A DNA stretch of 29,783 nt from NCBI GenBank assembly GCA_021737245.1, contig JAIPEI010000001.1:1-29783 (forward strand), in the 5' to 3' direction. The stretch's first letter is position 1; every line of letters begins with the position of its first letter. This document shows, one piece after another, positions 1,263 to 18,636 of the stretch. The notes beneath the pieces were generated by a model. The model made no database searches. It was given only the letters and a program-made list of their open reading frames with translations, and had not been told where the DNA came from. The position numbers and the translations under genes are program-made. Source of the DNA: Deltaproteobacteria bacterium. GTDB lineage: Bacteria > Desulfobacterota > DSM-4660 > Desulfatiglandales > HGW-15.

Positions 1263-3485
1263 TTGGATCGAGCAGATCGAGAAGGGCGGATCCGCGCCCA
1301 GATCGTCGACGGAATTTACCGCCAGGCACCGGGGGGGATGGTCGCTACACTGGCCAACGCCCTGATTCTCGCCGCCGTCCTCCTGGGGGAGGTCCAGGCC
1401 GTTGCCGTCGGGACCTGGCTCGCTGCCGTGATTCTCCTCCTCGTCGCCCGGGCGGCTCTGGTGTTATTCTATCGGAGATCGTCTCCGCCTCCGGAGCTGG
1501 CCCGGGTGTGGGAAAGAAGGTTCATGGTCGGGCTGTTCCTGTCCGGGCTCCTGTGGGGGAGCACCGCCGTTTTTCTCTTTCCCGTGAACGCACCCCTGCA
1601 TCAGGCGTTTCTCGCCATTGTCCTGTGCGGCATGGCCGCCGGGGCCGTGGGTTCTTTTTTTTTCCTGGTGGAGATGTTCGCTCTCTTCACCTTTCCCGCC
1701 CTGACTCCATTGATCGTTCGTTTCCTTCTGATTCCCGGCGGGGTATACCTCGCACTGGCCGCGATGACCGCTCTGTTCGTCGCGTTGACCGTGGCGACCG
1801 CCCGACGCACCAGCCGGGCCAACTGGGAGCGGGTGGAGCTCAAGGAGACGTTCGCCGACATGCTCGAGGACCGAACCTCGGAGCTCACCCGAAGCAACCG
1901 ACGATTGAGAGCGGAGAACGAGGAGCGGAGGCGGGCTGAAAAGGCGCTTGCGGAAACCGAAAAAAGATACCGAAACCTGTTCGACAACATCCCGGACCTG
2001 CTCTATGCCCATGATCTGGAAGGGAGGATGCTGGAGGCGAACCGATCTTGGGAGCGATACGGCTTCAATCGAGACGATCTGGTGGGTCTGTCCGCCCGGA
2101 GGATCCTGTCCGAGCAGGTGAAGGGTGAGTTCGACGACTATCTCGCAAGGATTCTGGAGGACGGCTTTACCGAAGGGTTGATGCAGATTCGGGGAAAGGA
2201 CGGGGGAACGTTCACGGTGGAGTATCGGAGCGATCTGGTTCGGGACGACGAGGACCGGCCGGTGGCGGTTCGGGGGGCGGGCAGGGATGTCACGGATCGG
2301 ATTCAGGCTCACAAGGAGAAGCGGGAACTGGAGGCCCAGCTCATGCAGGCCCAGCGCTTGAAGGCGATCGGGACGCTGGCGGGTGGGATTGCCCATAACT
2401 TCAACAACCTGCTCATGGGCATCCAGGGGAACGTTTCGCTCGGTGTTCTGGAGATCGACGCGGGGCACCCGCTCGAGCAGCGGCTGGCGAGGATCGATCG
2501 CCTGGTCGGGCGAGGCTCCGAGCTGACCAGCCATCTCCTGGCCTATGCGCGCGAGGGAAAGGTCCAGGTCCGGCCCCTGGACATCAACGAGGTCGTGAAG
2601 AACACGGCCTCCGCATTCGGTGAGACCCGAAAGGAGATGCGGGTGCACCTCGATCTGGCGGAGGGGTTGGGCCTCGTCGAGGCGGATCTTTCGCAGATCA
2701 GACAGGCCGTCCTGAACCTTTGCATCAACGCGGCCGAAGCCATGCCCGGCGGGGGGGAGCTCCGGATTCGGACGCGGGGCAGGCGTGGGGACGAGGTTCG
2801 GGAAGCCCGGCCTGACGCGAAGCATTGCGACTACGTAAAAATGACCATTCTGGACACCGGCGTGGGCATGGATCAAGAGACCATGGCAAGAGTCTTCGAT
2901 CCCTTTTTTACGACCAAGGGGGTCGGCCAGGGAACCGGATTGGGACTGGCGTCCGTACACGGCATCGTGGAAAGCCACGGAGGGCTCATCGAAGTCGATT
3001 CCGAGGTCGGCCGGGGGACACGTTTCGATGTGTATCTCCCCGTGGCCGTCGGCCGAGGAAGGGAGGGTAAGCTCATGGAGGAGCAGACAAAGCACGGCCC
3101 TCGGACCGTGCTCCTGGTGGACGACGAACCGATCATCGTGGAGGTGGGGGAGCAGATGCTGGGGTCGCTGGGTTTCCGCGTTTTTACGGCGGGAAGCGGC
3201 CGGGAGGCCTTGAAGGTTTACGAGCGTTACGCCGGCGAGATCGACCTGGTCGTTCTGGACATGATCATGCCGGACATGAGCGGCGGCGAGACCTTCGATC
3301 GCCTCAAGGAGGCCGATCCCGGCGTGCGCGTGCTGCTCTCGAGCGGATACAGTATCGACGGTGAGGCGAGGGAGATTCTGGACCGGGGGTGCAGCGGCTT
3401 CATTCAGAAGCCGTTTCGCCTGTCCGACTTGTCGGATGTGCTCGACGAGCTGATGGCGGGGGGTGAAACGGATTCGCAGGCCTGA
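1263..3485 (+). CDS. Membrane-bound hybrid sensor histidine kinase (multi-TM, PAS/PAC, HisKA, HATPase, REC), 740 aa
   Basis: About 6 hydrophobic segments; PAS (LFDNIPDLLY...EAN); H-box LAGGIAHNFNNLL; N-box NLCINA; G1 DTGVGM; F-box FDPFFTTK; G2 GTGLGL; receiver VDDE...LDMIMPDMSG...SSGY...QKPF. TTG start with GGAG upstream. Confidence 0.93.
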   Translation: MDRADREGRIRAQIVDGIYRQAPGGMVATLANALILAAVLLGEVQAVAVGTWLAAVILLLVARAALVLFYRRSSPPPELARVWERRFMVGLFLSGLLWGSTAVFLFPVNAPLHQAFLAIVLCGMAAGAVGSFFFLVEMFALFTFPALTPLIVRFLLIPGGVYLALAAMTALFVALTVATARRTSRANWERVELKETFADMLEDRTSELTRSNRRLRAENEERRRAEKALAETEKRYRNLFDNIPDLLYAHDLEGRMLEANRSWERYGFNRDDLVGLSARRILSEQVKGEFDDYLARILEDGFTEGLMQIRGKDGGTFTVEYRSDLVRDDEDRPVAVRGAGRDVTDRIQAHKEKRELEAQLMQAQRLKAIGTLAGGIAHNFNNLLMGIQGNVSLGVLEIDAGHPLEQRLARIDRLVGRGSELTSHLLAYAREGKVQVRPLDINEVVKNTASAFGETRKEMRVHLDLAEGLGLVEADLSQIRQAVLNLCINAAEAMPGGGELRIRTRGRRGDEVREARPDAKHCDYVKMTILDTGVGMDQETMARVFDPFFTTKGVGQGTGLGLASVHGIVESHGGLIEVDSEVGRGTRFDVYLPVAVGRGREGKLMEEQTKHGPRTVLLVDDEPIIVEVGEQMLGSLGFRVFTAGSGREALKVYERYAGEIDLVVLDMIMPDMSGGETFDRLKEADPGVRVLLSSGYSIDGEAREILDRGCSGFIQKPFRLSDLSDVLDELMAGGETDSQA

Positions 3486-4150: not shown

Positions 4151-4681
4151 CCTCACCCTTTCCTCCAGGAGAAAGAGGGTCCCGATCTCCTCCCCTTCGC
4201 TTTCCCGGAGCGGGGTGAGACGCTCAGGATCGATGCGGTGGGTGATCTTGGCGCACAGGTAGTTGATGCAGATCACATGGCGGGCCGACAGGAGGCATCC
4301 GGTACGGCCCAGGAAGAAGCATCCCGCCGGATCGAGCCGTTCCCCGGGAAGCGGCCTGCCCAGCAGTCGGTTGATCAGCAGCAGCAGCCCGCTGTATCGA
4401 TCCTCGATGCCCCTCCCGCAGCAGGAGCCCCCTTCCCGGAGACCGCACTCGCTGCAGCAGTCCGCAACACCCGATTCGAGCATCCGGCGGCGGGGCGCTT
4501 CCGCGGCCGCCCTGAACCGCGCGAGCAGATCCGCGACGGCCGGATCCGCCGACAGGCGGGCGCCGGCTTCCCGGTAGCAGGACTCCGCCCACGCAATCCT
4601 CTCTGCGACGGGACTGCCCAGGGAGCCGTTCCCGCCGGGTGTAAACTCAGGCCTTCTTTTTCCCGCTCGACTTTCGGCCAC
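4133..4681 (-). CDS. Cys-rich hypothetical protein, possibly YkgJ/FliB-like (CxxCxxCC) metal or Fe-S binding; start uncertain
   Basis: CCxxC-x7-CC ... CFFLG-xxGC ... CINYLC. Start candidates: GTG 4681 (overlapping the Lon end, purine-rich upstream), CTG 4621, ATG 4483. The track's 4777 start overlaps Lon by 131 nt. Confidence 0.6.
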   Translation of the reverse strand: MAESRAGKRRPEFTPGGNGSLGSPVAERIAWAESCYREAGARLSADPAVADLLARFRAAAEAPRRRMLESGVADCCSECGLREGGSCCGRGIEDRYSGLLLLINRLLGRPLPGERLDPAGCFFLGRTGCLLSARHVICINYLCAKITHRIDPERLTPLRESEGEEIGTLFLLEERVRKVLRC

Positions 4682-7151
4682 CGGACTTTTCCCTTCCTTT
4701 TTCCTCGGCGGGCTCGGCGTTCCCGAACTTCTTGAGCCCTTCGGCCAGCTCCCGAAGTTTCCGGTCCACAAGGTCATTGATGCTGTTCTTGGTGTAAGTG
4801 CCGTCGGCCTTCCTCTTGCCGGCCGGCCTGCCGGACAGGATCTCGATGCCCTCGTCGATGGTCTTGACGGACCAGATGTGAAACCTTCCCTTTTCCACCG
4901 CCTCCACCACGTCCTTGCGCAGCATCAGATCCTTGAGGTTCGCCTCGGGAATCATGACGCCCTGGTTTCCGGTCATGCCGATCTTCCGGCAGCAGTCGAA
5001 GTACCCCTCGATCTTCTGGTTGACCCCTCCGATGGCCTGCACCTCTCCTTTCTGGTTCACGGATCCTGTCACGGCGATGTACTGCTTCAGCGGTAGGTCC
5101 GCCAGGCTCGAGAGCAGGGTATAGACCTCGGTGGACGACGCGCTGTCCCCTTCCACCCCTCCGTAGGACTGCTCGAAGGCGATGCTGGCGCTCACAGTGA
5201 GCGGCTTCTCCTGTGCGTACTTGTGGCGGAGGTAGCCGCTGAGGATGAAAACGCCCTTGTTGTGGGTCTTGCCCGAAAGATCGGACTCCCTCTCGATGTT
5301 GATGATGCCGGCCCGTCCCATGGACGTGGAAGCCGTGATCCGGTTGGGCTTGCCGAAGGCGTAGTCCCCCAGGTCGTAAACCGCGAGCCCGTTGACCTGC
5401 CCCACCTTTTCCCCGTCCACGTCGATCATCAGGGTTCCCCGGTCGATCATCTCCTGGATCTTCTCCTCCACCAGGTTGGAGCGGTACACCCTGGCGTCGA
5501 CGGCCCGGTCCACGTGCTCGGCGCGAACCGACGGGGCCTTGTCCTGGCCGGACCAGTAGTCGGCCTCGCGGATGATGTCTGTAATTTCGGAAAAGCTGGT
5601 GGAGAGCTTCTCCTGCCTCCCGGTCATGCGGACCGCCTCCTCGACCAGGGCGGCCACGCTCGTTCGGTCGAACGGCTTGAGCTTGTCGTCCTCCACCCTC
5701 ATCTTGATGAACTCGGCGAACCGGTGAATGGACTCTTCCGTCTTGTCCATGGACGTGTCAAAGGCGGCGCGCACCTTGAAGATCTTTGGGACGTCCTCGT
5801 CGTAGCGCAGCAGGAGGTAGTAGACATAGTCCTCGGAGATGACGATCACCTTGGTGGTCATGTCCACCGGCTCGGGCTTCAGGCCGGTGGTCGTGAAGAG
5901 GTAGAACGGATCGTAGGTCTGGATCTCCATTTTCTCGGTCTTCAGGGCGCGCTTGAGAGAGGGCCAGACGCCCGGTTCGATCAGGGCGTCCATGAGGTTG
6001 ATCACCAGGTACCCGCCGCTCGCCTTGACCAGAGAGCCGGCGCGGATCTTGCTGAAGTCCGTCCGCCACACGCCGCTTCGGTCCACCACGCGTTCGATGA
6101 AGCCGAACAGGTTGCGGTAGGTGGGGTAGGTTTCCACGATGACCGGAACCGCCGACCGCTCCGAGTTGTCCACGATCACGTTGACCTGGTAAGGCTGGAA
6201 TGGATCGCCTTCGGTGAGGATGAACGGGAACCCCTGCATCTGCTCCTTGCCCTGTGTCTGGAAGATCCTGATGTTTTCTCCCAGGTCCTCAAGCATGTCG
6301 TCGAGAAACTTCTGAACCTTTTCCACTTCGTACTTCCTGCGGATGGAGGCCAGGCCGTCCTCGGCCAGGTTCTTGAACAGCATGGTGTCCGTCTTCTCGA
6401 CGTTCTCCTGGACCTCTTTCTGGAGGTCGCGAAGCTCGAGGAAGATCTGATCCACCTGCTCCCGCAGCTCCGCCTGCTTCTTCTTCAGGACCTCGTACTC
6501 CTCCTGGGGAAAACGCCCCTTCTCCACCATGGCCTCGATCTGGTCGATGTGGGTGGGGTTGCCGTCGACCAGGGGGACGACCTCGGGACGCTTGATGTCC
6601 CCCAACTGCATGTCCACCAGGGCGAACCCTTCTTCCCGAACCTTTTTGTCCAGGTCTTTGAAGAATCCCTTGCCCTTCTTTTCATAAGCCTGCATGATCT
6701 CTTTCTTGCGGCTCAGGTAGTCCTGGCTTTCAAAGAGCGCCGGCACCTCCCGCTTCAGGCTCTCGATGAAATCGTGAATGTCCTTCTTGAAGGCGCCGCC
6801 CTTTCCCGCGCTGAACCGGAGCAGGATGGGATTGTCCGGGGACTTGAAGTTGTTCACGTAGCAGAGATCGTCCGGGATCTCGACCCCCTTCTGCTCGGCC
6901 ATCTGCTCGAGAAGCTTTCGCACCGTGGACATGCGACCCGTCCCGGCGATCCCGGTAACATAGATGTTGTACCCCGGCTTGTGCATGCCCATGCCGAACC
7001 GGAAGGCTTCCACACCGCGGTCCTGGCCGATGATCTTTTTCAGGGGTTTCAGGTCGTCCGTGGTCTGGAAAGGCAGAGACGCTGCGTCCAACCGCCATCT
7101 CAGCTGATTGAGCGGTGCTCTGTGGGTGCTCGATTTTTTCTTTGAGGGCAT
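4647..7151 (-). CDS. Lon-family (S16) protease, LonC/YcbZ-like, 834 aa
   Basis: Ser-Lys dyad motifs GVEGDSASS and GGVNQKIEGY. N-terminal LRWRLD...IIGQDR. ATG at 7151 with GAGGAGG upstream, so the track's 7370 start is too long. Confidence 0.9.
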   Translation of the reverse strand: MPSKKKSSTHRAPLNQLRWRLDAASLPFQTTDDLKPLKKIIGQDRGVEAFRFGMGMHKPGYNIYVTGIAGTGRMSTVRKLLEQMAEQKGVEIPDDLCYVNNFKSPDNPILLRFSAGKGGAFKKDIHDFIESLKREVPALFESQDYLSRKKEIMQAYEKKGKGFFKDLDKKVREEGFALVDMQLGDIKRPEVVPLVDGNPTHIDQIEAMVEKGRFPQEEYEVLKKKQAELREQVDQIFLELRDLQKEVQENVEKTDTMLFKNLAEDGLASIRRKYEVEKVQKFLDDMLEDLGENIRIFQTQGKEQMQGFPFILTEGDPFQPYQVNVIVDNSERSAVPVIVETYPTYRNLFGFIERVVDRSGVWRTDFSKIRAGSLVKASGGYLVINLMDALIEPGVWPSLKRALKTEKMEIQTYDPFYLFTTTGLKPEPVDMTTKVIVISEDYVYYLLLRYDEDVPKIFKVRAAFDTSMDKTEESIHRFAEFIKMRVEDDKLKPFDRTSVAALVEEAVRMTGRQEKLSTSFSEITDIIREADYWSGQDKAPSVRAEHVDRAVDARVYRSNLVEEKIQEMIDRGTLMIDVDGEKVGQVNGLAVYDLGDYAFGKPNRITASTSMGRAGIINIERESDLSGKTHNKGVFILSGYLRHKYAQEKPLTVSASIAFEQSYGGVEGDSASSTEVYTLLSSLADLPLKQYIAVTGSVNQKGEVQAIGGVNQKIEGYFDCCRKIGMTGNQGVMIPEANLKDLMLRKDVVEAVEKGRFHIWSVKTIDEGIEILSGRPAGKRKADGTYTKNSINDLVDRKLRELAEGLKKFGNAEPAEEKGREKSGGRKSSGKKKA

Positions 7152-7227
7152 TGCGGACCTCCTCGAAGGCTCAGGCTCCTTCGGTTCACATGATGACTGT
7201 GTCTTCGCAGCCGCCGGCCGGGCGGAG

Positions 7228-7674
7228 TCAGGCGATCCGGATCTCAATTTCACGCGCGGGATCGGTCTTTCGTTTGGGCAGGACGATCTCCAGTACTCCT
7301 TCGTTGTAGCTCGCCGAAGCTTCTTCGGGAACGATCCGGGAGGGCAGCCGCAGCCGCCGTACAAATGCATCGTACCGCGCTTCCGTCTTTCGAACGGTGT
7401 CGTTTCCCCGCCTGCGTTCCGTTCGACTCGCGCACCGGATCGTCAGCCGGTCCTCCGACACCCGGACGGTGAGGTTGGCCGGGTCGATGTCCGGGATCCG
7501 GGCCCGGAGCAGAAGCGATTCCTCCCGGTCGAGGATCTCGATCGAGTCGATCCCCCCGGCGGGCGGCAGGGCGGGAGTCATGCAGAAATCGTCCCAGACG
7601 CGTTCGAACATGCGTCCCATGTCACGCCTCAGTCGGTTCATTTCTTCGATCTTCCAGATGGACAGCTCAGCCAT
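7228..7674 (-). CDS. Small heat-shock protein, Hsp20/alpha-crystallin family, 148 aa
   Basis: FVRRLRLP...ASYNEGVLEIVLPK and a C-terminal IEI motif. GGGAGGT ribosome-binding site at 7687-7681. Confidence 0.92.
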   Translation of the reverse strand: MAELSIWKIEEMNRLRRDMGRMFERVWDDFCMTPALPPAGGIDSIEILDREESLLLRARIPDIDPANLTVRVSEDRLTIRCASRTERRRGNDTVRKTEARYDAFVRRLRLPSRIVPEEASASYNEGVLEIVLPKRKTDPAREIEIRIA

Positions 7675-8537: not shown

Positions 8538-8567
8538 TTGACAAGCCGGGGAGTTATCGGGTAAAAG
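8538..8567 (+). promoter_or_regulatory. dcw (Pmra-like) promoter
   Basis: Perfect TTGACA at 8538-8543. The -10 is imperfect (TAAAAG at 8562-8567, N18). Lies directly upstream of mraZ. Confidence 0.55.
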
Positions 8568-8600
8568 TGTCACAAAGTGGAACTTAGTGTCATAAAGTGG
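8566..8600 (+). promoter_or_regulatory. MraZ-type operator: four AGTG(T/G) boxes at exact 10-bp period
   Basis: AGTGT 8566, AGTGG 8576, AGTGT 8586, AGTGG 8596. MraZ is known to bind GTGGG-like direct repeats with 10-bp period upstream of mraZ. Confidence 0.8.
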
Positions 8601-8609
8601 TGCCCCGGC

Positions 8610-9047
8610 ATGTTCAAAGGACGCTCCCGACATACCCTGGACGAGAAAGGACGGCTGGCCGTCCCTGCTCGTTTCAAGGAGGCCCTCCAGCAGAAGGGCA
8701 ACGACGTTCTGGTGCTCACGAACCACGACAGTTGCCTCTGGGCGTTTGCCCTGGACGACTGGCGCGCCATTGAGGAGAAAGCTGCAAATCTCTCCCTTTT
8801 CAACCATGCTGCCAACCGTTATCTGCGCTATTTTATCTCCGGTGCGCAGGAATGTCCACTCAAACAGGGCCGCATCACCATTCCTCCGGATCTGCGGGAC
8901 ATCGCCGGCTTGACCAAAGAGGTCGTACTCGTCGGTGAGCTGAAGATCTTCGAGATCTGGGATCGGGAGCGGTGGGAGGACGAGTTCGAGACGGCGAGAC
9001 AGAGCTTTCCCCAGGACAGCCAGGCCCTCTCGGAGCTGGGCATTTAG
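8610..9047 (+). CDS. mraZ: Division/cell-wall cluster transcriptional repressor MraZ, 145 aa
   Basis: MFKGRSRHTLDEKGRLAVPARF...GRITIPPDLR...FEIWDRERW. ATG at 8610; the track's 8577 start runs through the operator. Confidence 0.95.
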   Translation: MFKGRSRHTLDEKGRLAVPARFKEALQQKGNDVLVLTNHDSCLWAFALDDWRAIEEKAANLSLFNHAANRYLRYFISGAQECPLKQGRITIPPDLRDIAGLTKEVVLVGELKIFEIWDRERWEDEFETARQSFPQDSQALSELGI

Positions 9048-13992: not shown

Positions 13993-15450
13993 ATGGCCGC
14001 CTCGTGGGGACGCATCACGGCCGGGGAGATCGCAGGCGCCGCAAACGGGGCCCTGATCGAGGGATCCGCGGACGCGGTGATCTCCGGCGTCACCACGGAC
14101 ACCCGGAATCTCGCGCCGGGGGAGCTCTTCTGGTCCCTGGTCGGGGAGCGGTTCGACGGCCACGACTTCATGCTCAGGGCGCTCGAGCAGGGAGCGGCGG
14201 GCGTTGTGGGAAAAACGGACCGGGTGCGATCCCTGTCCCTTCCCGAGGGACGCGCGGCCATCGGCGTGGAAGACCCCCTGAGGGCCCTGGGGGACCTGGC
14301 CTCGTGGTGGCGTCGTGAACACAGGGTCGCGGTGGCCGCCCTCACCGGCAGCGCCGGGAAGACGACCACCAAGGAGATGGCCGCGGCCGTGCTGGACCTG
14401 GAAGGACCGACTCTCAGGAACAGGGGGAACTTCAACAACCTGATCGGCCTCCCGTTGACCCTTCTCGGGCTTCTCGGGGAGCACCGCTACGCGGTCCTGG
14501 AGATGGGCATGAACAGGCCTGGAGAGATCGCGAGGCTCACCGAGATCGCCGATCCGGACGCGGGGCTCATCACAAACGTGGCCAGGGCCCACCTGGAAGG
14601 TCTGGGAGACCTTCGGTCCGTGGCCAGGGCCAAGGCGGAGCTCCTGGATCGAATGCGGCCGGGCGCAACGGCGATTCTCAACGGGGACGACGCACTCCTG
14701 ATGGCCGAGGCCCATCGGTTCCAGGGACACACCGTCACGTTCGGCCTGGGGCCGGAGAACCGGGTCCGGGCCGAACGCGTTCGGGCCCTGGGGCGAAACG
14801 GCATCCTGTTCGAGCTGGTGTACGGGGAAGAGCGGATCGAGGTCCGTCTTCCGGTCCCTGGGCGCCAGAACGTGTTGAATGCCCTGGCCGCGTCGGCCCT
14901 GGCCGGCAGCCTGGGCGCGGGCCTCGAGACCGTGGCGCAGGGGCTGGAAATGTTCAGGGGGGTCCCGGGCCGTTTCACTGTCCTGAATCTGCCCGGAGGC
15001 GGCGTTCTGGTGGACGACACCTACAATGCCAATCCCTCCTCGCTCGAGGCGGCCCTTGACTCGCTTGCCGACCTGGCGGGCGGGCGGGGACGGATCATCG
15101 TCTGTCTCGGGGACATGCTGGAGCTGGGGCGGGAAACGGTTCCCGCCCATCTGGAAGCGGGACGGGCGGCTGCGGAACGGGGTGCGGCGCATCTCCTGGT
15201 TCTAGGGGAGCAGGCGGATCACGTCATCCGCGGGGCCCTGGACCGGGGTCTCCCCGCCGAACGCACACATCGGATGCACAACCACGAGGAGATGGCGGAT
15301 GGAATCCTGGATCTGCTCGAGAACGGGGACGTCGTCCTACTCAAAGGCTCCAGGGGAATGCGGCTCGAGAAGGTGGTCGAGCGCATCGTCGGAGCGGGGC
15401 GGAAAGGAGGCCGTAGTGGTCTCGATCAAGAGGGTTCTGGTGGTGGATGA
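13993..15450 (+). CDS. murF: UDP-MurNAc-tripeptide:D-Ala-D-Ala ligase MurF
   Basis: LTGSAGKTTTKEM, NFNNLIGLPLT, EMGMNRPGEI, DDTYNANPSS, LGDMLELG, KGSRGM. Confidence 0.96.
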   Translation: MAASWGRITAGEIAGAANGALIEGSADAVISGVTTDTRNLAPGELFWSLVGERFDGHDFMLRALEQGAAGVVGKTDRVRSLSLPEGRAAIGVEDPLRALGDLASWWRREHRVAVAALTGSAGKTTTKEMAAAVLDLEGPTLRNRGNFNNLIGLPLTLLGLLGEHRYAVLEMGMNRPGEIARLTEIADPDAGLITNVARAHLEGLGDLRSVARAKAELLDRMRPGATAILNGDDALLMAEAHRFQGHTVTFGLGPENRVRAERVRALGRNGILFELVYGEERIEVRLPVPGRQNVLNALAASALAGSLGAGLETVAQGLEMFRGVPGRFTVLNLPGGGVLVDDTYNANPSSLEAALDSLADLAGGRGRIIVCLGDMLELGRETVPAHLEAGRAAAERGAAHLLVLGEQADHVIRGALDRGLPAERTHRMHNHEEMADGILDLLENGDVVLLKGSRGMRLEKVVERIVGAGRKGGRSGLDQEGSGGG

Positions 15451-15835
15451 CGAGCCGGGGGTTCGCGCGCTCCTCAGCGAAATCCTGGCGGGCCCTGAGC
15501 TTCATGTCACCCTTGCGGGCGACGGGCTCGAGGCCGTGCAGCTGCTCCGCCGGCGGCGGTATGATGCAGTCGTTACGGACGTGAACATGCCCGGCATGGA
15601 CGGCATCGATCTGCTTCGCTGGATGAAGAGGAACAAGCGCCGCGAGAAGGCCGTCGTCATGAGCGGATCGCCCCGGCACGATCTCCTTCCCGCCCCGGAG
15701 CTCCCTCCGATTCGGGCCCGGTTTCGAAAACCGTTCCGGATTGGAATGTTCGTGACGATCATGGAGGCGGTCCTGTTCGATCGCAGAGGAAATCCCGGAC
15801 GGCGCGCAGGGACCGGAAGAAAGGGAGTGGCCTGA
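15416..15835 (+). CDS. Single-domain response regulator (CheY-like receiver), 139 aa, inside the dcw cluster
   Basis: AGGAGG (15405-15410), 5 nt, then GTG at 15416. VLVVDDE, VVTDVNMPGMDG (phospho-Asp), VMSG (Ser), KPF (Lys). Overlaps the murF stop by 35 nt and ends 3 nt before mraY. Confidence 0.88.
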   Translation: MVSIKRVLVVDDEPGVRALLSEILAGPELHVTLAGDGLEAVQLLRRRRYDAVVTDVNMPGMDGIDLLRWMKRNKRREKAVVMSGSPRHDLLPAPELPPIRARFRKPFRIGMFVTIMEAVLFDRRGNPGRRAGTGRKGVA

Positions 15836-15838
15836 TCC

Positions 15839-16918
15839 ATGCTGTACAAGCTGATCTATATCTTCCATCAGGACCTCTCCTGGCTGAACGTGTTCCGTTA
15901 TATCACGTTCCGGACCATCCTGTCGGCGCTGTCGTCCCTGGCCGTCGTGCTCTTCTTCGGCCGATGGGGCATCGAACGGCTCCGGGCCATGCAGATCGGA
16001 CAGTTCATCCGCGAGGACGGACCGCCCGATCACAAGGGCAAGGCCGGCACCCCCACCATGGGAGGATGCCTGATCCTGCCCGTCATCATGCTTACCACGA
16101 TCCTGTGGGCGGATCCCGGGAACACCTATATCTGGCTGGCCATGGTGGTGCTTCTCGGCTTCGGCGGCATCGGGTTCGTGGACGACTACATCAAGCGGGT
16201 TCGCAAAAGCAGCCAGGGTTTGAGCGCCCGGTCCAAGTTCAGCCTGCAGTTCCTCGTCGCCACGGTCGTGGCGGTCTGCCTCTATACGTATCCCGACTTC
16301 GACTCGCGTCTCATGGTGCCGTTTTTCAAGAATCTCCAGCCGGATCTCGGTCCATGGTACATCCTGTTCGCCGTGTTCATCATCGTGGGGGCGTCGAACG
16401 CCGTCAATCTGACGGACGGGCTGGACGGTCTGGCCATCGGCCCCATCATCGTCTCTTTCAGCAGCTATCTGGTCTTTGCCTACCTGGCGGGGCACGTGAA
16501 GATTGCGGGATACCTTCAGATCCCCTACGTGGCGGGAGCGGGTGAGCTCTCGGTTCTGTGCGGGACGGTGGCCGGTGCGGGGTTGGGGTTCCTCTGGTAC
16601 AACGCCTATCCCGCAGAGGTGTTCATGGGGGACGTTGGTTCCCTGCCCCTCGGGGCCGTCCTGGGAACCGTCGCGGTGATCACCAAGCAGGAGATCGTCC
16701 TCGTTCTCGTCGGGGGCCTGTTCGTGGTGGAGGCTTTGTCGGTGATCTTCCAGGTCGCATACTTCAAGCTCAGGGAGGGGCGCAGGATCTTTCGCATGGC
16801 CCCCCTGCACCACCATTTCGAGCTGAAGGGATGGCCCGAGAGCAAGGTGACTGTTCGGTTCTGGATCATTTCCGTGATCCTGGCGCTCCTGGCCGTCAGC
16901 ACGTTGAAGCTGCGGTGA
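15839..16918 (+). CDS. mraY: Phospho-MurNAc-pentapeptide transferase MraY
   Basis: [45 protein letters not shown]. About 10 TM. Confidence 0.97.
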
Positions 16919-16922
16919 TTTG

Positions 16923-16982
16923 GTGTCGGTGTCTGTGTCTGTGTCGGTGTCTGTGTCGGTGTCGGTGAGGGTGAGGGTGAAA
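16923..16982 (+). repeat. Hexamer tandem array: 7 x GTGTC(G/T), 2 x GTGAGG, 1 x GTGAAA
   Basis: Read directly. Begins 4 nt after the mraY stop. Confidence 0.9.
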
Positions 16983-17080
16983 GCGCGATGATGGTTGAGG
17001 CGGAGCGGATCAGGAACAGGCCGTCGGTCAACGGGGACCATTGAAGAGCAACCCGCGTCCAGGATGTTTGGGAGGGGACC

Positions 17081-17269
17081 GTGGAAACGGACGCGCAAAA
17101 GGTCATGCTGGAGAGCTGGCGATACAGGGTTCAGCACCGGACCAACCCCCTGCACGTCTACTGCCGGCTGGTGGATTTGGGCATGGGACGTTTTCTCTCC
17201 AGGAAGGTTTGTGTGCTCTACGAAAGGCTGATCTTTCCACCCGGAAGGCGGGAATGGAGAAAGGACTGA
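17081..17269 (+). CDS. Putative small protein of unknown function, 62 aa, coupled to murD
   Basis: GGAGG (17071-17075), 5 nt, then GTG. Sequence METDAQKVMLESWRYRVQHRTNPLHVYCRLVDLGMGRFLSRKVCVLYERLIFPPGRREWRKD. Its stop overlaps the murD start by 16 nt. Confidence 0.6.
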   Translation: METDAQKVMLESWRYRVQHRTNPLHVYCRLVDLGMGRFLSRKVCVLYERLIFPPGRREWRKD

Positions 17270-18636
17270 ACATTCGAGGGAAGCGCGTCGTCGTAGTGGG
17301 CCTGGGCCGCTCCGGCTCGGCGGCGGCGTTGTGGCTCTCGAAGAGGGGAGCCGTGGTGACGGTCAGCGACCTGCGCCCGGCGTCCGATTTTCCGTCCGAT
17401 GCCCTTCAGGAGATCCGCGATGCCGGGATCCTCCTCGAGCTGGGCGGGCACGCAGCGGATACGTTCCTCCATGCCGATTGGATCGTCCTCAGCCCCGGCG
17501 TGCCCCCGGAGATCGAACCGATCCGATCCGCAAGGAATCGGGGGATCTCGGTTTTCGGAGAGATGGAGCTTGCCTGCAGGCTCCTGGACATCCCCATGGC
17601 GGGCGTGACCGGCACCAACGGCAAGTCCACGGTCACCGCCCTCTTGGGGGAGATGCTCCGAAACCGGGGAGAGCGGGTGTTCGTCGGCGGGAACATCGGC
17701 ACGCCCCTCATGGACCTGGTGACCGGACGCCGCGCGTACGACCGCGGCGTGATCGAGGTATCCAGCTTTCAGCTCGACACCATGGAAAGCTTTCAGCCCG
17801 AGGTCTCCGTGATCCTCAATGTCAGCCCGGATCATCTGGACCGTTACCAGGACTACGAGGCCTATGTTCAGAGCAAGCTGCGCATCTTTCGTCACCAGAG
17901 GCCGGGGGACGCCGTAGTTCTCAATGATGACGATCCCAGGCTTCAAAAGGTGGAACCCGCCGGACATCTCCGGGTCCTGCGCTACGGTGTGGAGGAGGCG
18001 CCGCACAGAGCGGCGTGGATCGGCGAAGGCCGCGTCATCGCCCGCCTGCCGGACGCCGGACCCGTTTCGTTTTCCCTGGCCGGGTTCGCGCTGCCCGGAG
18101 AGCACAACCGGGAAAACCTGATGGCGGCGGTGCTGGCCGCCATGGCCATGGGCGCCGGTCGCGATGCGGTGCAGAAGGGGATCGACAGGTTCCGGGGACT
18201 GCCCCACCGGCTGGAGTTCGTGGGCCGGGCCAAAGGCGTGGCGTTCTATGACGACTCGAAGGCGACGAACGTGGACGCCGCCGCGAGGGCCGTGGAAAGC
18301 TTCGAACAGCCTCTGGTCCTGATCGCCGGCGGCCGGCACAAAGGAGGCGACTACGGGCCGCTCGTGAGGGCTGCCCGGGGAAGGGTCAAGGGGGCGGTGT
18401 TTCTCGGAGAGGCTCGGCGGCTGCTGGCCGAGGCGTTCGACGGCGCGGTTCCGTACCGCATCGCCGGTACCATGGACGAGGCCGTGTCCGAATCCATAGC
18501 CCAGGCCGGACCGGGGGACGTGATCCTTCTCGCGCCGGCCTGCTCCAGCTTCGACATGTTCCAGGACTATGCCCATCGGGGGCGGGCGTTTTCGGAGGCC
18601 GCTCGGAGGTTCATGGATGGCGACGAAGAAGCGTGA
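17254..18636 (+). CDS. murD: UDP-MurNAc-L-Ala:D-Glu ligase MurD, 460 aa
   Basis: VVGLGRSG, SPGVP, GVTGTNGKSTVT, GGNIG, EVSSFQL, NVSPDHLDRY, DDSKATN, LAPACSSFDMF. True ATG at 17254; the track's 17041 start is extended. Confidence 0.96.
   Translation: MEKGLNIRGKRVVVVGLGRSGSAAALWLSKRGAVVTVSDLRPASDFPSDALQEIRDAGILLELGGHAADTFLHADWIVLSPGVPPEIEPIRSARNRGISVFGEMELACRLLDIPMAGVTGTNGKSTVTALLGEMLRNRGERVFVGGNIGTPLMDLVTGRRAYDRGVIEVSSFQLDTMESFQPEVSVILNVSPDHLDRYQDYEAYVQSKLRIFRHQRPGDAVVLNDDDPRLQKVEPAGHLRVLRYGVEEAPHRAAWIGEGRVIARLPDAGPVSFSLAGFALPGEHNRENLMAAVLAAMAMGAGRDAVQKGIDRFRGLPHRLEFVGRAKGVAFYDDSKATNVDAAARAVESFEQPLVLIAGGRHKGGDYGPLVRAARGRVKGAVFLGEARRLLAEAFDGAVPYRIAGTMDEAVSESIAQAGPGDVILLAPACSSFDMFQDYAHRGRAFSEAARRFMDGDEEA

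Follow-up and report, generated by a model that had tools for sequence, protein, structure and literature searches.

The closest parallel that we know for the locus described here comes from Myxococcus xanthus: a 2025 study showed that EpsZ, the phosphoglycosyl transferase with which exopolysaccharide synthesis on undecaprenyl phosphate begins, is a direct target of EpsW~P, a phosphorylated single-domain regulator that binds and activates it (PMC12802240). EpsW is a stand-alone receiver, like the protein examined here, and it acts post-translationally on an enzyme that moves a sugar-1-phosphate to undecaprenyl phosphate (PMC12802240); MraY carries out the analogous first membrane step for peptidoglycan. 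The likeness is a functional analogy, joined in our case by gene adjacency and likely coupling to mraY: EpsZ is a monotopic phosphoglycosyl transferase with a beta-hairpin feature, whereas MraY is polytopic, belongs to another superfamily and shows no feature that tracks the receiver. Receivers of the DivK/DVU0259 type and CpdR are also single-domain proteins that act by protein-protein contact, on division or proteolysis, and appeared among the NCBIfam matches of our protein. Their genes, however, lie outside the dcw operon, and DivK is essential whereas the receiver described here has been lost repeatedly. Spo0F is likewise a stand-alone receiver lacking an aromatic switch residue, carrying H at position K-3, and was the best structural match; it differs in that sporulation is not a trait of the host lineage of our sequence, for which no partner of the Spo0B type is known. 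FATGUY receivers (Sma0114, SdrG) are single-domain proteins in which alpha4 is disordered or absent. The receiver studied here lacks their PFxFATGY motif at beta4-alpha4, and its family instead has a canonical (V/I)M(T/S)G at beta4. Adjacency of murF and mraY is among the most constant in bacteria, and our literature search found no paper describing a receiver between the two genes. What is new is that this receiver has a fixed place in the dcw operon and recurs there.

The whole stretch of DNA that was analysed (29,783 nt, hereafter the window) possessed a dcw cluster in the order mraZ, rsmH, ftsL, ftsI, murE, murF, receiver, mraY, murD and onward, as assigned by Pfam and NCBIfam. The gene for the stand-alone response-regulator receiver (15416..15835, + strand; 139 aa, GTG start, TGA stop at 15833-15835) was identified by Pfam PF00072 and by an AF2 model with a REC fold, and was situated between murF (13993..15450, +; TIGR01143, 407.9 bits) and mraY (15839..16918, +; TIGR00445, 420.9 bits). 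As the first-pass annotation of the sequence had noted, it starts inside murF behind a strong Shine-Dalgarno sequence: AGGAGG (15405..15410, +) lies within the murF 3' end, 5 nt before the GTG, and 35 nt are shared between murF and the start of the receiver gene. At the other end, the mraY ATG follows 3 nt past the receiver TGA, and the last receiver codons hold AAGGGAG (15821-15827, +), the likely mraY ribosome-binding site, which agrees with the earlier placement of that site in the tail of the receiver. We found neither a promoter-like nor a terminator-like site on the + strand between murF and mraY. Because the receiver is packed so tightly against both neighbours, translational coupling is likely, in line with the linkage that the first-pass annotation had proposed. 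The same layout was seen in related genomes, where the receiver start codon occupied the homologous position behind a purine-rich Shine-Dalgarno sequence in 60 of 61 orthologues. With murF stops located by a heuristic, the murF-to-receiver distance had a median of 6 nt, and the receiver start overlapped murF in 22 of 58 cases; the receiver-to-mraY distance had a median of 21 nt and was at most 60 nt in 51 of 54. We regard the receiver gene as genuine, embedded in the operon and apparently coupled in translation to its neighbours.

At the head of the cluster, a TTGACA hexamer was followed by four (A/T)(A/T)AGTG boxes with an exact 10-bp period (8564, 8574, 8584 and 8594; the whole element at 8539..8599, +), next to an mraZ ORF (8577-9047) that matched Pfam MraZ. 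The boxes at 8564-8599 resemble published MraZ operator repeats, and the region 8539-8599 looks like a Pmra promoter carrying such repeats, in keeping with the control by MraZ that had been suggested for the receiver gene. The boxes adjoin and overlap the listed mraZ GTG start at 8577, and this overlap suggests that the true start lies further downstream. Similarly, the listed murD ORF (TTG at 17041) extended ~80 residues beyond the N-terminal end of the region matched by Pfam MurD; murD therefore probably begins further downstream, leaving an unusually long mraY-murD spacer (16919-17300).

The window receiver matched Pfam PF00072 with 71.7 bits (cutoff 30.2; E 7e-20), with only profile positions 1-79 of 111 aligned. 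REC was the only Pfam match in the 139-aa protein, and residues 122-139 are disordered and not conserved, leaving no output domain. The AF2 model (72 sequences) had a confident REC fold (pLDDT 83.5, pTM 0.78) in which all five strands and helices 1, 2, 3 and 5 were modelled, residues 84-98 formed a coil in place of alpha4, and residues 124-138 were disordered; in an orthologue from family f3 (G129), AF2 placed a six-residue, low-confidence alpha4 helix at 86-91. A Foldseek search against the PDB matched at least 500 receiver chains, all of them generic; the list was led by Spo0F, RR468, XynC and the RssB receiver, with the Spo0F entries 6ifh and 1pey as the closest structures (TM ~0.72-0.86, 31% identity). 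The analogy with DivK and CpdR drawn in the first-pass annotation survives at the level of function only, since the receiver scored 40 bits against an NCBIfam cutoff of 160 for the DVU0259_DivK family (NF045717) and 47.7 bits against 180 for the CpdR family (NF046022), and so belongs to neither. The protein is a single-domain response regulator, one ordinary representative of a very large superfamily.

The residues expected of a phosphorylatable receiver, previously described as intact, are present in the window protein and conserved in the 61 extracted orthologues on which our residue and start-codon counts rest. D11 and D12 (codons 15446..15451, +) form the acidic Mg2+ pocket, with D12 found in 61 of 61 orthologues and D or E at position 11 in 61 of 61. 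D55 (15578..15580, +), the predicted phospho-acceptor, sits in a TD-x-x-MP motif and is invariant. S83 (15662..15664, +) supplies the T/S at the end of beta4, which is T in 43 and S in 18 orthologues, and K105 (15728..15730, +) lies in a KPF motif where both K105 and P106 are invariant. M58, P59, G63, M70, R75 and E77 were also without exception; R75-x-E77 and M70-K71 are signatures of this orthologue family and not of receivers in general. The beta4 strand reads AVVMSGSP in the window receiver, against an orthologue consensus of VIVMTGxP. The K-3 position, which is the aromatic Y106 in CheY, is R102 here, and the CheY-type aromatic switch is therefore absent, as had been proposed; the six commonest residues at position 102, which cover 56 of the 61 orthologues, were R in 23, Q in 17, H in 7, L in 4, S in 3 and K in 2, with no aromatic residue among them.

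The window receiver contains the stretch SPRHDLLPAPELPP. The Pro-rich alpha4 segment (residues 85-98; 15668..15709, +) was modelled by AF2 as coil with pLDDT ~75-78 and varies across orthologues. That alpha4 is Pro-rich in the window was confirmed, and the helix is degenerate, but only the window's genus has the Pro-rich version, which is thus a local trait and not one of the orthologue family. The same holds for the basic, disordered C-terminal tail (residues 122-139; 15779..15832, +; pLDDT <50 at residues 124-138), which holds the mraY ribosome-binding site: tail length ranged from 0 to 25 residues among orthologues and the tail was strongly basic mainly in the window's family, f1, so we rejected it as a feature of the family of orthologues as a whole. 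Over the 61 orthologues, residues 86-96 of the alpha4 segment were the most variable part of the receiver domain, and the usual output face, alpha4-beta5-alpha5, was its least conserved part.

We evaluated the distribution of the receiver with an orthologue profile in 209 genomes of the window's order, which also make up the entire class. Profile scores were bimodal, with orthologues at 143 bits or more and other receivers at no more than about 108 bits, and an orthologue was present in 100 of the 209 genomes, comprising 33 of 61 in f1 and 67 of 105 in f3; the profile search found none in families f2, f4, f5 and f6. By match coordinates and tblastn on the loci, 98 of these 100 orthologues adjoin murF and/or mraY on the same contig, and the remaining two (G077, G110) lie on short contigs with neither gene in the flanks fetched. 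This comparison of intervals bears out the expectation that the gene is kept in many relatives, and we conclude that two families of the Desulfatiglans order have inherited the receiver vertically at exactly this murF-mraY junction. Broader searches were less selective. A DNA-level search with the back-translated TD-x-x-MP motif, which is generic, returned one true orthologue, and a profile search of protein representatives gave a top 150 dominated by multi-receiver proteins with summed domain scores. The orthologue of G128 is identical to VBB47185.1 from an uncultured Desulfatiglans sp., whose 90%-identity cluster includes WP_051184651.1 of Desulfatiglans anilini, and a 73%-identical locus is labelled as an uncultured Desulfobacterales bacterium, Thermodesulfobacteriota. 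The source of the window is thus a member of the Desulfatiglans lineage, and its DNA is present in metagenome runs from lake water. Orthologues appear in databases as 'response regulator', 'CheY-like chemotaxis protein' or 'Sporulation initiation phosphotransferase F', the last of which, on a Desulfatiglans orthologue, is an automatic similarity label.

Pairwise Nei-Gojobori dN/dS of the receiver gene, excluding the 12 codons that overlap murF, was 0.29-0.35 when the window was compared with its two nearest species and 0.22 in a further close pair, and the same genome pairs gave 0.17-0.25 for murF and 0.07-0.15 for mraY. The receiver is under purifying selection. It is nevertheless frequently lost. 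Three of the nine species in the window's own genus (G002, G007 and G008) have a deletion of the gene, and within f1 and f3 we counted 37 receiver-less genomes with a murF-mraY gap below about 110 nt and 15 further genomes with a gap of 110-320 nt and without an orthologue. The first-pass annotation had named absence from close relatives or signs of decay as what would count against its reading, and the outcome was mixed: a dN/dS of 0.2-0.35 speaks against decay where the gene is retained, but the losses reach into the genus and extend to about half of the order. With deletions on this scale, the receiver is therefore not an essential division factor; it probably adds to cell-wall synthesis a signalling component that the cell can do without.

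In several genomes the loss is still under way, with recognizable remnants at the junction. In the window's genus, G002 keeps a 99-aa in-frame remnant without part of alpha2 and the whole of beta4-alpha4-beta5, G007 has murF fused in frame to the last ~15 receiver codons with a stop 3 nt before mraY, and ~60 nt of the receiver are left in G008. Elsewhere in the order, G187, one of 11 species in a genus whose other 10 carry the gene, encodes a 30-aa mini-ORF composed of the first 21 and last 8 receiver codons; G100 has weak remnants, and in G193 the receiver is split across two frames. The remnants retain the receiver 3' end with the mraY ribosome-binding site. As every one of them keeps the 3' end before mraY, the body of the gene is dispensable in these genomes and the mraY initiation context is not.

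To place the junction in the context of the phylum, an even sample of 401 genomes was scored with the orthologue profile, and orthologue-level scores were found only in members of the window's class. A survey of murF-mraY intervals in 141 genomes at least 90% complete, chosen without bias, showed that, of about 122 genomes outside the class with a measurable interval, about 110 have murF and mraY separated by no more than about 130 nt. Two other families nonetheless have different stand-alone receivers at this junction: G345 (L196) and G280 (L197) of family f58 have gaps of ~470-500 nt with such a receiver inside, and G443 (L182) and G544 (L183) of family f51 carry another between murF and mraY. 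Within f58, a junction receiver was present in 4 of 17 genomes from three genera. This second group, which also includes the receivers of loci L219 and L221, has MSS or MST at beta4, C or H at K-3, and an alpha4 region that aligns fully to Pfam. In a quick tree, the receivers of G345, G280, G443 and G544 formed a clade of their own, apart from the window's family; in an AU test, however, a single clade of all junction receivers was not rejected (p 0.90), the constrained tree having the higher likelihood, and an independent origin of the second group thus stays undecided.

Adjacency of murF and mraY is lost altogether in a small number of genomes of the phylum, such as G315, with murF at C1, 2089478-2090866 and mraY at 3847021-3848094, and in families f50, f47 and f34. 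In some genomes with non-adjacent genes, MraY is only 42-44% identical to that of the window. In two further genomes, from other families, murF and mraY are ~340 nt apart (G317, C1:1611374-1611711; G344, C2:24996-25331), and neither interval contains a receiver-like sequence or, on the coding strand, a long ORF.

Both species of one genus, g89 (G171 and G170), possessed a 269-aa sensor-less histidine kinase, consisting of HisKA and HATPase_c only, between murF and the receiver (L131:291-1097, which is G171 C4:78740-79546, and G170 C266:5904-6710), giving the order murF-kinase-receiver-mraY. The insertion argues that the junction receiver may be a real phosphorylation substrate. Both genomes also encode, at another site, a paralogue 56% identical to this kinase. 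We evaluated the junction kinase as a universal partner and rejected it: it had no orthologue outside the genus, and its best matches, at ~50% identity, occurred in receiver-bearing and receiver-less genomes alike. Since it has no orthologue elsewhere in the order, it names no general partner. In the window itself, a PAS-HisKA-HATPase-REC hybrid kinase is encoded 5 kb upstream of the dcw cluster (1263-3485, +), and a LonC/LonB-like protease 1.2 kb upstream (4647-7370, -). The hybrid kinase was likewise discarded as a partner, as the genus has no full-length orthologue and only a C-terminal receiver piece occurs near dcw, in receiver-bearing and receiver-less genomes alike. Genomes of the order hold dozens of hybrid kinases. 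The first-pass annotation had proposed a phosphorylation input into division or peptidoglycan synthesis, and our comparisons showed no direct link of this kind: checking the hybrid kinase and the g89 kinase in relatives yielded no conserved partner kinase, and no column of the MraY alignment separated receiver-bearing (n=21) from receiver-less (n=5) sequences.

Gene position by itself is no proof of a functional link. The reading we favour, though tentatively and with somewhat less than even confidence, is that this single-domain receiver, presumably co-produced with the dcw proteins, is a phosphorylation-dependent accessory modulator of the machinery made alongside it, most likely at the MurF-to-MraY step. 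The receiver would be translated, along with MurF and MraY, from the dcw transcript, and D55 would receive its phosphate from a histidine kinase or an Hpt protein whose gene lies elsewhere or, in g89, possibly from the kinase encoded right beside the receiver. The phosphorylated protein would then work by protein-protein contact as a non-essential modulator, and its most likely target would be the formation of lipid I and the use of undecaprenyl phosphate at the MurF-to-MraY step, on the model of EpsW~P and EpsZ. A more specific form of this proposal, in which the phosphorylated receiver binds MraY (or MurF) directly and gates lipid I synthesis and undecaprenyl phosphate allocation in response to a kinase signal, we consider rather unlikely; the absence of a tracking MraY column, the unconserved output face and the frequent loss of the gene all count against a tight MraY partnership.

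The unconserved output face also fits a role as phosphate shuttle or sink within a multi-step phosphorelay, similar to Spo0F, with no direct dcw target and with the operon providing steady, growth-coupled expression. Spo0F as the best structural match, the dozens of hybrid kinases in these genomes, the R, Q or H at K-3 as in shuttles, and the dispensability of the receiver in many lineages are all consistent with that role, which we judge an unlikely but serious alternative. If the operon served only for expression, however, such fidelity to one position would be surprising: the receiver occupies one junction in 98 of 100 cases, with a second group of receivers there as well. Nor did we identify an Hpt or Spo0B-like partner. 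In another reading the gene is a passenger, kept mainly for the mraY translation-initiation signals in its 3' end and with little or no present role for its own activity. All deletion remnants retain this 3' end with its stop and ribosome-binding-site context, as in the G007 fusion, the G187 mini-ORF and the G002 remnant. Yet these same remnants show that coupling is achievable without the gene body, and where the body is present it is under purifying selection (dN/dS about 0.3) with D12, D55, K105, R75 and E77 invariant in 61 orthologues, so we regard a passenger as improbable.

Least probable, in our view, is a pseudo-receiver that acts independently of phosphorylation as a constitutive structural partner. 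The degenerate alpha4 and the lack of an aromatic switch residue are what such a protein might show, and with both features the classical Y-T coupling is missing. The conservation of D/E11, D12, D55, T/S83, K105 and the MP motif stands against it, as does the recruitment of a kinase gene beside the receiver in g89.

If the phosphorylation-dependent modulator that we favour is not the answer, what is left is an orphan receiver in an unusual place, and its repeated clean deletions mean that it is not needed for viability. That a receiver has stayed fixed in this junction through the lifetime of two families, and recurs there in others, nevertheless suggests that in some bacteria a phosphorylation signal reaches the committed membrane step of wall synthesis. 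Such an input, if real, would extend the EpsW-EpsZ principle from exopolysaccharide to peptidoglycan. Binding of the receiver to MraY or MurF, if it occurs, would constitute a two-component, post-translational input on the first membrane step of peptidoglycan synthesis, and the presence of junction receivers in four or more families of Thermodesulfobacteriota would in that case be due to repeated recruitment or ancient retention. Desulfatiglans anilini is a cultured host with an orthologue (WP_051184651.1) and g89 adds an adjacent kinase, which together provide a testable handle on such an input.
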